Shown here one piece after another: positions 40,984-42,545 of a DNA stretch of 64,000 nucleotides. Where the stretch lies: the NCBI RefSeq assembly GCF_053078305.1, contig NZ_CP166879.1; one strand, 5' to 3'. The stretch's first letter is position 1; every line of letters starts with the position of its first letter. Below the pieces are notes generated by a model. It worked only from the letters and a program-made list of their open reading frames with translations. It ran no database searches and was not told the origin of the DNA. Both the position numbers and the translations under genes were made by a program.

Positions 40984-40994
40984 ATATCCGCCCA

Positions 40995-41019
40995 TAAAAA
41001 AGGGGCGCAGACGCGCCCC
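40995..41019 (-). terminator. intrinsic terminator ending the porin insert
   Basis: Minus strand hairpin GGGGCGCGTCTGCGCCCC plus T7, 12 nt before L start codon. Confidence 0.65.
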
Positions 41020-41192
41020 GAACAATAAAAGTCCAATTTAAAATAAAACCAATAAAGGTAATAACAGAAAGTTAAATCAGCACATGCCAGATGGCAATTG
41101 CTGATCGCAGTGACCAATGAAAACTGTGTTTTCATTGATACAGGCCGCCTGTAAGGGCAGACGGCCCGTATTTATTAACTTATCAGCAATAA

Positions 41193-42347
41193 TCAGAACT
41201 GATAAGTCATACCCACAGCAACGATATTATCTGTCGCAACACCGGCTTTCCGGGTAAATTCACTTTCATCAATCAGGTTAATTTTATAATCAACATAGGT
41301 GGACATATTCTTGTTAAAGTAATAAGTCGCACCGACATCAATATATTTAACCAGATCCTGATCGCCATGGTTCACACCACCAACCATAACATCCTGTCCG
41401 CGGGACTGAAGGTAGGCAAGGGACGGGCGCAGACCAAAATCAAACTGATACTGAACAACGGCTTCGATATTCTGAGCTTTATCCGCAACACCTTGATCAC
41501 CAAAGGTCGTCATATTCTGGGTTTCAGAATACACTGCTGCCAGATACAGGTTATTGGCATCATATTTAAGACCAGTTCCCCAGAATTCAGCATGTTTACC
41601 TTTTGCCACACTACCTGAGTCAACTGTTTTTTCTCCAACCTTTTTACCTGATTCAGGATCAAGAACATCTGCAGTACCGTTCAACCCCTGAACCTGCTTA
41701 TCGGTACGATCTGACTTGGTATACGCAGCGACAAAACCAAAACCATCAAACTCATAGCTGGCCGAGAAACCATACCCGTCGCCATTAGCCTTCTGAAGGT
41801 CATCACGCTCATTTTTGCCCTGATACTGCGCCGCAAAATTCAGACCATCAACCAGTCCGAAGAAGTCTGTATTACGGTAAGTCAGGACACCGGAAGTTCG
41901 GGCCGTCATAAAGTTATCGGTCTGCGTCCAGCCATCACCACCAAACTCAGGCAGTACGTCAGTATATGATCCGACATCGTAAGCAATACCATAGTTACGT
42001 CCGTAATCAATGGTACCAACATCTGCAAATCTCAGACCTGCAAATGCCAGACGGGTTTTATTTCCCGCGGAACCTTCAGATTCCGTTTTGTTACCAGAGA
42101 ACTGGTATTCCCACTGACCAAATCCGGTCAGTTGATCATTAATCTGCGTTTCGCCTTTAAAGCCGAGACGAGCATAAGTCTGGTCTCCGTCATTACCTTT
42201 ATCATCCGAGAAGTAATGCAGAGCGGTTGCACGCCCGTAAAGATCCAGTTTATTACCATCTTTATTATAAACTTCTGCTGCCTGCGCCCCCGCAGCAAAC
42301 ATCACTGCCACTGCTACAGCAGAAAGTGCCACTGTCATTTTTTTCAT
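41193..42347 (-). CDS. prophage-encoded OmpC/OmpF-family porin
   Basis: 384-aa ORF with signal peptide [40 protein letters not shown]-terminal YQF; AT-rich upstream region and own terminator; inserted between M and L. Confidence 0.88.
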
Positions 42348-42545
42348 GATTTAATCCTTATTTAAACTGAACTATTCATGCATTCAGATGTCATGAACAA
42401 AAATTAAAATATTTTAATACAAATTCTTAGTTCAATTTATATTATGTAACAAAATGTAAATACAAGATCGATTTCGCACTTTCTGACAAGACAGATTAAA
42501 AATAATTAACAACTAAACAATAAAGAGTGATTTATAGGATAATTC

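Follow-up and report, generated by a model that had tools for sequence, protein, structure and literature searches.

A porin gene with a structured, IpeX-like 3′ region between tail genes M and L of a lambdoid prophage: a proposed porin-swap moron

Major porins are the route of entry for beta-lactams, fluoroquinolones and nutrients, the receptors of phages (T4-like phages, 434 and long-tailed phages of enterohaemorrhagic Escherichia coli, EHEC) and of colicins, and dominant surface antigens. Some temperate phages bring general porins of their own, namely Lc in PA-2 and NmpC in DLP12 (the qsr' prophage), P7 and 434, and PA-2, in the work of Schnaitman and of Misra, is said to adsorb to OmpC and, once established as a prophage, to induce Lc and repress OmpC. 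These porins are coupled to an RNA: as summarised in reviews, IpeX is a 167-nt RNA that forms part of the DLP12/PA-2 porin transcript, is processed from it and lowers OmpC and OmpF (PMC12197685, PMC8065619). Here we describe a related cassette, a porin gene followed by a structured 3′ region, that lies between tail genes M and L of a lambdoid prophage (positions 40984-42545, minus strand) in a 64,000-nt stretch of NCBI RefSeq assembly GCF_053078305.1, contig NZ_CP166879.1 (the whole stretch is called the window below). We consider it probable that this cassette is a lysogenic-conversion moron of a 'porin-swap' kind, in which one autonomous transcription unit gives two products, the porin and an RNA of the IpeX family. 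Phage porins coupled to IpeX are already known from Lc and NmpC, and the cassette is not a new principle; new are its slot and orientation, its regulatory box, the sequences of its stem-loops, its long and hypervariable external loop L5 and its repair of tail-gene translation. The searchable literature yielded no account of a porin located between M and L, and public genomes label the gene merely 'porin OmpC'.

The porin coding sequence (41193-42347; this and all other parts of the cassette are on the minus strand) is a single uninterrupted open reading frame (ORF) of 384 aa and the sole ORF of the insert. It matches PF00267 (Porin_1) over residues 29-384 (model positions 1-337 of 337, E = 7e-144), aligns with the solved OmpC structure 3upg from residue 24 to its last residue (E = 3e-131) and also matches the solved structures of OmpK36, PhoE and OmpF end to end. 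Its signal peptide (42279-42347) is a hydrophobic leader of 23 residues that ends in AQA and is followed by AEVYNK, and the mature solved porins begin at the aligned residue 24; at the other end the protein closes with MTYQF, which puts an aromatic residue last. An AlphaFold2 model built from 76 homologues has 16 strands (predicted template modelling score, pTM, 0.72), with low confidence confined to the signal peptide and part of L3 (residues 131-149). In the alignment with OmpF, R60, R99, R150, D130 and E134 correspond to the eyelet residues R42, R82, R132, D113 and E117, the position of OmpF K16 is taken by an arginine (R39), and the PEFGGD motif is present. A complete gene with a signal peptide and a terminal YQF was what an earlier reading of the DNA letters (the sequence-only reading) had proposed, and the full-length Porin_1 match agrees with it; that reading had also named a disrupted barrel as grounds for giving up its view of the gene, and the model, the eyelet and PEFGGD instead describe an intact one.

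The affiliation of the protein is less simple than its database name suggests. It scores 507.9 bits against the NCBIfam OmpC model NF007841 (cut-off 484), which is a 'subfamily' model and not an equivalog, and no orthology should be inferred from the pipeline name 'porin OmpC' that this model confers. In the alignment with Lc, NmpC and OmpC that the sequence-only reading had recommended, extended to other porins, the protein is 71.0% identical to Lc of PA-2, 64.5% to K-12 OmpC, 62.3% to OmpF and 60.8% to the YedS-type porin encoded in the window itself. A search of 5.8 billion proteins gave nearest named relatives of the Lc/NmpC/OmpD type at 66-69%, and the signal peptide is of the MKK-TVA-SAVA type that these porins share; the alleles of the M-L slot form a separate cluster, 78-99% identical, to which that slot contributes every member. 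Judged by its sequence, the protein is an intact general diffusion porin of the OmpC/OmpF/PhoE family, apparently on the same Lc/NmpC/OmpD-like branch as the known phage porins, and is not an ompC orthologue, being about as similar to OmpF as to OmpC and sitting in a prophage tail operon. The label 'OmpC-family' of the sequence-only reading is right for the fold, and the closer kinship is to Lc/NmpC/OmpD (68-71%) rather than to OmpC (64.5%); its description of the gene as a paralogue of yedS is true in the loosest sense only, both genes being of one family and in one window at 60.8% identity.

The YedS-type gene of the window (21640/21670-22857, plus strand) is intact, yedS being a pseudogene in K-12, and the small RNA (sRNA) RseX lies directly upstream of it (21268-21357, plus strand; Rfam, 97.7 bits), making the pair a chromosomal case of a porin gene that adjoins an sRNA targeting ompC and ompA. 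It resembles the M-L porin in its family and in this flanking sRNA, and differs from it in an OmpC-like signal peptide, a chromosomal location and the lack of a long L5.

That loop (residues 214-251; 41595-41708), placed by the AlphaFold2 secondary structure between strands 203-213 and 252-264 and modelled as a protruding beta-hairpin, is much longer than in Lc/NmpC and hypervariable. Among 26 full-length alleles its length ranges from 16 to 41 residues, pairwise identity is 49% within it against 89% elsewhere, and mean column variability is 0.34 in L5, 0.06 in the strands and 0.02 in L3. The window's allele and that of RM9387 are 99% identical outside L5 and 59% identical within it. Two IMG/VR contigs (L052 and L053) encode a mosaic porin, of the G1/2 type in its N-terminal two-thirds, L5 included, and of the window's type in its C-terminal third, a sign, as we read it, that cassette alleles have recombined. 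Diversification of an outer loop on a channel that is itself conserved would be expected of a surface-displayed protein under pressure from phages, colicins or antibodies, and the combination of purifying selection on barrel and eyelet with diversifying selection on L5 implies that the porin is exposed on the cell. None of the nine extracted cassettes (the window's and those of eight sampled loci) has an interrupted ORF, and the whole-gene IMG/VR loci likewise give full-length porins.

The second product would come from the 197 nt that follow the stop codon and close with the U-run of the terminator (40996-41192). An AT-rich upstream region and a terminator of its own had both been assigned to the cassette in the sequence-only reading; both are there, with 33-35% G+C upstream and a hairpin ending 12 nt from L, and the 3′ flank is more than a terminator. 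Its 11 distinct versions have one fold, in which three stem-loops are followed by an unpaired stretch of ~57 nt and the terminator, and the element is kept even where the overall identity of two cassettes is down to 79%. Stem-loop 1 (41138-41171, 14 bp) has three pairs changed on both sides and 98.7% of cells paired, stem-loop 2 (41115-41137, 10 bp) four such pairs and 100% of cells paired, and stem-loop 3 (41075-41106) one such pair and 98.7% paired, its outer 7 bp being conserved and its inner part variable or, in some alleles, deleted. Over the whole consensus structure 99.3% of cells are paired and eight pairs, in about five independent lineages, are changed on both sides; none of 500 shuffles reached the observed pairing and covariation, and sliding the partners by 1-3 columns reduced the paired cells to 37-43%. 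Switches between G.U and A.U or G.C at several positions fit an RNA of the porin's sense strand only. The stem of the Rho-independent terminator (40996-41019; GGGGCGC-GTCT-GCGCCCC followed by T6) is invariant in all alleles, and the unpaired stretch, with the segment TTAACTTTCTGTTATTACCTTTATTGGTTTTATT (41042-41075) and its invariant core TTATTACCTT (41055-41064), is among the best-conserved parts of the flank. Scans of the region with Rfam at E-value and gathering thresholds returned noise only, a silence that is uninformative because the authentic ipeX loci of K-12 and PA-2 also go without an Rfam match, there being no usable IpeX model. On this comparative evidence the 3′ flank is a conserved structured RNA.

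The region after nmpC and lc is laid out in the same way, with three stem-loops in the 3′ untranslated region (UTR), an unpaired anti-porin stretch and a terminator of the GGGGCG...CGCCCC kind (GGGGGCG...CGCCCC in nmpC/lc), over a distance from stop codon to terminator of 162 nt in nmpC against the 197 nt of the window. The window and ipeX have in common a core TTCTGTTAT(N0-4)TACC(C)TTTATT, which also occurs in an ATAT form, TTCTGTTAT(ATAT)TACC(C)TTTATT. Compared directly, the M-L element and ipeX are 45% identical, with an nhmmer match (E = 0.012-0.02) that is limited to the terminator region, and the three stem-loops are unrelated in sequence. A closer connection runs through a P1/P7-like phage contig from a metagenome in the European Nucleotide Archive (L101 5001-6410; the contig carries DarA, DdrB, SSB and lysozyme), which encodes a 406-aa porin followed by three stem-loops, the stretch CTTCATGTTATTTATTACCCTT and a terminator. 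In small, pre-chosen search spaces the M-L profile matches this P1-like element with E = 5.5e-5, and the P1-like element matches the ipeX regions with E = 6e-8; aligned with the reverse complement of the ompF start region, CTTCATGTTATTTATTACCCTT agrees at 20 of 23 positions, and two of the three mismatches could still form G.U pairs. Because of this homology through the P1-like intermediate, we regard the M-L element as a putative diverged member of the IpeX family, and the P1-like phage would be a third genomic context for a phage porin with an anti-porin RNA. The contexts themselves differ: Lc/NmpC genes (ev017, DLP12, PA-2) lie between Q and holin on the opposite strand, whereas the M-L cassette lies between M and L on the strand of the late operon and supplies a ribosome-binding site for a tail gene. 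The prophage sRNA svsR, which limits phage adsorption in the mouse E. coli strain NC101, was considered and is a different element, located at the cI 3′ end and directed at the maltose regulon.

Complementarity of the unpaired stretch to host porin messages is the trait that would give the RNA its role. Full-length RNAduplex runs against targets of 120-150 nt gave artefactual end-to-end duplexes and were replaced by seed-only duplexes and by antisense local alignments, the latter scoring Watson-Crick and wobble pairs against K-12 ompC from -60 to +30 with mononucleotide shuffles for comparison. The window's allele scored 45 against ompC (shuffles: mean 23.6, maximum 44), and the L015, L016 and L014 allele types scored 45, 42 and 46, with p ≤ 0.001 in all four types; authentic IpeX, which has a 15-19-nt antisense match to ompC in this alignment, scored 33 (p = 0.005), weaker than any of them. 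Against ompF the window's element scored 43. Ranked among the genes of eight outer-membrane proteins and 93 start regions taken as background, ompC was the top target of every one of the four allele types and ompF came second in three. Compared with 6,396 genomic windows, the seed-only duplex of the window's allele with ompC (-24.3 kcal/mol) ranks in the top 0.16% and that with ompF in the top 0.55%. The stretch faces the ompC leader and start and the ompF Shine-Dalgarno region, in registers that vary: the window and L014 types pair mainly at ompC -45 to -8, the segment of IpeX, and the L015 and L016 types from the Shine-Dalgarno sequence through codon 4. Of 5,426 E. coli genomes, 5,366 have the ompC leader at 99% identity or more, and being near-invariant it would be a stable target. 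A second motif of the element, TTTTAAATTGGACT (41030-41043), can pair with the 5′ leader of the cassette itself, AGTTCAGTTTAAAT (42366-42380), with 13 perfect base pairs in L015, 13 base pairs including two G.U in the window and no significant match in L014; 5′-3′ UTR pairing, autoregulation or a relic are possible explanations.

Upstream of the porin, the AT-rich 5′ flank of 198 nt (42348-42545) is presumed, from its composition and from blocks kept across alleles, to be the promoter and regulatory region. Most of it is poorly conserved, and an OmpR-type box, TTTACATTTTGTTACATAAT (42441-42460), is kept in all allele groups. It agrees with the K-12 ompF F1 box at 17 of 20 positions and with ompC C1 at 15 of 20 (16 of 17 to ompC when the preceding bases are included), and is the only match with three or fewer mismatches in the 64-kb window, where 0.01 would be expected; one allele group has TTTACATTTTGAAACA, which equals ompC C1 over 16 nt. 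The other blocks kept across alleles are TTTACATT, ATTGAA, AATATTTT, GTTYATGACA, TGAAYAGTTC and AAGGA, the last being the Shine-Dalgarno sequence (42355-42359), 7 nt before the porin ATG and invariant. Control of the cassette by OmpR is probable on these grounds. The upstream region of lc differs, with annotated CRP sites and a best OmpR-box match of 11 of 20. By eye, just the weak -35/-10 candidates ATGACA, AATAGT and ATGAAT could be picked out, and no start site is claimed. With its C1/F1-like box, its fold, its eyelet and PEFGGD, and a porin gene coupled to an antisense RNA, the cassette recalls the chromosomal systems OmpC-MicF, OmpF, PhoE and OmpN-MicC; here, unlike in ompC-micF and ompN-micC, the antisense RNA would be the gene's own 3′ UTR and not a divergently transcribed gene, and the porin differs from OmpC (64.5% identity) in its signal peptide and its prophage location.

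The insert is 1,562 bp long and reaches exactly from the stop codon of M to the start codon of L, where the sequence-only reading had placed it; in empty sites the two genes abut. The lambdoid tail operon runs on the minus strand in the order H, M, insert, L, K, I, J, with the tape measure gene H at 42880-46122, M (113 aa) at 42546-42887, its stop codon forming the 5′ edge of the insert, and L (232 aa) at 40285-40983 (ATG at 40983, stop at 40285). M is annotated as 'phage tail protein' or Phage_min_tail in 99.7%-identical genomes and related loci. G+C content is 56-64% in the tail genes, 42-49% in the porin ORF and 33-35% in the 5′ flank. Among 121 phage records only the M and L flanks matched, and there they are contiguous; in the empty site of BP-4795, CTGATGCAG, the M stop overlaps the L start, so that M and L would be translationally coupled. 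The insert destroys this overlap, and all alleles end in TATGGG(C/T)GGA followed by 4-6 nt and ATG, apparently a replacement ribosome-binding site for L; in the window the spacer with the conserved ATGGGYGGA occupies 40984-40995, and its 12 nt, ATGGGCGGATAT, are the exact gap between the terminator and the L ATG. Neither a target-site duplication nor a terminal inverted repeat was found at the M and L borders, and transposon-like mobility was dismissed.

With its extra DNA, deviant composition and own terminator the insert is, on sequence grounds, a classic moron in the sense of Hendrix and colleagues, the promoter part of that definition being inferred from the OmpR-type box and the conserved blocks. 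The lambda morons lom and bor are alike in their deviant composition, in separating genes that are neighbours in related phages, in having a regulatory region and terminator of their own and in specifying an outer-membrane protein to which a role in the lysogen is ascribed; they differ in slot and in product, an 8-strand Lom or a lipoprotein Bor as against a 16-strand porin accompanied by a regulatory RNA. Of 5,426 complete E. coli genomes, 108 have the full cassette with its flanks, at 79-99.7% identity, and in every case examined its slot was between M and L. At least five allele groups can be told apart (about ≥99%, 95%, 91%, 86% and 79% DNA identity), in two kinds of tail module, the lambda type (Z/U/V/G/T, with an 860-aa H) and the HK97/Stx-phage type. 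Among the carriers are human Shiga-toxin-producing E. coli (STEC), isolates from cattle, pigs and mice, and commensals of humans, and the cassette also occurs in 32 IMG/VR viral contigs (10 of 42 IMG/VR matches were set aside as chance) and in one assembly labelled Citrobacter. An exact-motif scan of 100,044 species-representative genomes gave 32 hits, all of them chance matches with neither porin nor terminator.

We infer from these features that the cassette is expressed in lysogens, depends on OmpR, represses ompC and ompF and excludes phages, along the following lines. It would be transcribed in the lysogen from its own promoter, probably in an OmpR-dependent manner, and transcription would end at its own terminator, leaving L unexpressed. 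The first product would be a trimeric general porin with a conserved constriction and a long L5 unlike those of host porins; the second would be its own 3′ UTR, the single-stranded part of which would pair with ompC mRNA where ribosomes bind and translation starts, and less uniformly with the corresponding part of ompF mRNA, lowering the expression of both. As is expected of Lc/NmpC and IpeX, the phage porin would then take the place of OmpC and OmpF on the surface, so that nutrient permeability would be kept while the receptors of OmpC/OmpF-dependent phages, plausibly including relatives of this prophage, and likewise of colicins, would be removed. During lytic growth, Q-antiterminated late transcription would pass through the cassette, whose own ribosome-binding site would then serve to translate L. 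A lysogen that displays an additional major porin, with changed receptor availability, appears to be the best-supported reading of the sequence.

Over its last 214 residues, J (gene at 34767-38291, minus strand) shares 53% identity with lambda J, 52% with 434 J and 82-89% with long-tailed Stx1/Stx2a phages (VT1-Sakai, Stx2a_JNE130578) and PhiR5_1; phages of the WGPS type have M and L ~95% identical to those of the window and J tips ~68% identical. That the J C-terminus diverges from lambda J, as the sequence-only reading had remarked, is correct at 53% over 214 aa, and such divergence says nothing about the receptor used. OmpC is the receptor of a WGPS6-like long-tailed EHEC phage (PMC12502783), and OmpC use by such a related phage would fit a porin swap.

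Several observations weigh against a porin swap of this kind. The 3′ element of the window is complementary to its own leader as well (score 41), which blurs its target specificity, and the L015 and L016 alleles also score fairly high on lamB and ompA. The covariation draws on about five independent lineages among the 11 distinct sequences. The original 2006 paper on IpeX reportedly found no simple complementarity, and a pairing mechanism is said to be unproven even there; a published summary states that complementarity alone does not explain IpeX action. This last point would suit a moron that acts through its porin only, the 3′ flank just stabilising and terminating the mRNA and insulating L, and the complementarity to ompC and ompF being left over. 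Stem-loops after stop codons commonly protect mRNA 3′ ends, a terminator is needed if L is to be silent in the lysogen, and the antisense scores, significant as they are, were obtained against small background sets. Such a moron is nonetheless unlikely in our view: the unpaired stretch is highly conserved although an unpaired spacer has no stabilising role, the ompC complementarity is kept in four of four allele types despite two registers (leader -45 to -8 and Shine-Dalgarno to codon 4), the independent P1-like lineage keeps its 20/23 antisense match to the ompF start, and the homologous IpeX has, as the reviews report it, demonstrated activity in trans (PMC12197685, PMC8065619).

The upstream region invites a different objection, namely that the cassette is silent cargo which hitch-hikes with the tail genes or is used under rare conditions. 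A scan of the porin strand for consensus sigma-70 promoters found no good -35/-10 pair, which is expected of an activator-dependent porin promoter and also of a silent gene. AT-rich foreign DNA is often silenced by H-NS, the very AT-rich upstream region here is typical of H-NS targets, and the related E. coli porins NmpC, OmpN and YedS are quiescent in laboratory strains such as K-12; some copies in the protein database are, moreover, partial or disrupted (P0019, P0021). We hold silence to be improbable, given that the ORF is uninterrupted in nine of nine cassettes and full-length in the whole-gene IMG/VR loci, that barrel and eyelet are kept while L5 diversifies, and that the regulatory box, the Shine-Dalgarno sequence, the RNA structure and the replacement ribosome-binding site for L are all conserved. 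It is very improbable that the porin is made mainly from the Q-antiterminated late transcript, for instance to change how permeable the envelope is ahead of lysis, or so that debris and vesicles carry a porin that is not a receptor. The gene does lie within the late operon and in its orientation, unlike lc and nmpC, which makes read-through transcription unavoidable; a purely late gene would, however, have no need of a dedicated OmpR-type box and terminator, porin assembly takes minutes and would be of little use shortly before lysis, and the Lc/IpeX precedent, in the reviews' account of it, acts in lysogens. The conserved antisense stretch, the pattern of selection on the protein and the dedicated regulatory parts appear to argue against all three alternatives.

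A wider version of the porin swap, which we put forward tentatively and with clearly less confidence, takes in all three contexts. The porin with its IpeX-family 3′ UTR would be a portable 'surface-swap' module found in at least three unrelated slots (Q-holin, P1/P7-like and M-L). The M-L lineage would have been rewired to OmpR osmoregulation, and the seed of its RNA would have drifted between registers while the ompC and ompF targets were kept. The hypervariable L5 would be an 'antenna' shaped by an arms race with porin-binding phages or by host antibody, and pairing with its own leader could balance synthesis of the porin itself. If this is true, ~2% of E. coli, many human STEC among them, would have a major-porin repertoire under prophage control, and phage therapy, colicin sensitivity, serology and antibiotic permeation would all be affected.

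Even apart from such a module, by adding a variant porin and, as its design suggests, silencing ompC and ompF, the cassette would change the entry, receptor and antigen properties of its host. About 2% of the complete E. coli genomes carry it, and human Shiga-toxin-producing isolates are numerous among these. For RNA biology, IpeX, so far one isolated and poorly understood case, would become a family of diverged members whose common trait is antisense complementarity to porin starts, and a family opens the mechanism to comparative and compensatory-mutation tests. For phage biology, the cassette is a moron that appears to break a translationally coupled pair of tail genes and to repair it with a ribosome-binding site of its own.

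Other features of the window were noted in passing. The prophage adjoins zinT/yodB, and the chromosomal part of the window includes the sRNA DsrA (12772-12858, minus strand; Rfam, 102.5 bits). No stx or tRNA genes were found in the window, its late-regulatory end having been checked, and a Stx-converting prophage was ruled out within it; what turned up there was just a tandem pair of STnc100-family sRNAs (minus strand, 63164-63374 at 168 bits and 63654-63860 at 135 bits), both upstream of a 655-aa late-region ORF (60970-62937), in the place where Stx phages have tRNAs and stx. At the other end, the side tail fibre gene (32558-34285, minus strand) encodes collagen-like Gly-X-Y repeats that weakly match Scl/Lcl adhesin models, and a DUF4376-type gene (31845-32516, minus strand) comes after it; the closest relatives also have a YadA-like adhesin and an S6 (EspP-like) protease as cargo at this prophage end, both absent in the window. 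Between tail genes I and J (38292-38952, minus strand) there are ~660 nt with no sizeable ORF, the counterpart of which is unannotated in a 99.7%-related genome (L001 23699-24411). This gap contains three copies of a repeat unit of ~230-240 nt with 81-nt cores at 38319-38399, 38559-38639 and 38789-38869, each unit having a CCCGCAGAG...CTGCGGG hairpin with a T-run as well as GAAGATTAACGTT, AAAAAACTGTAACGC and AATGTGAAGAAATTCAGA motifs; a further non-coding moron or an array of sRNAs is conceivable here.

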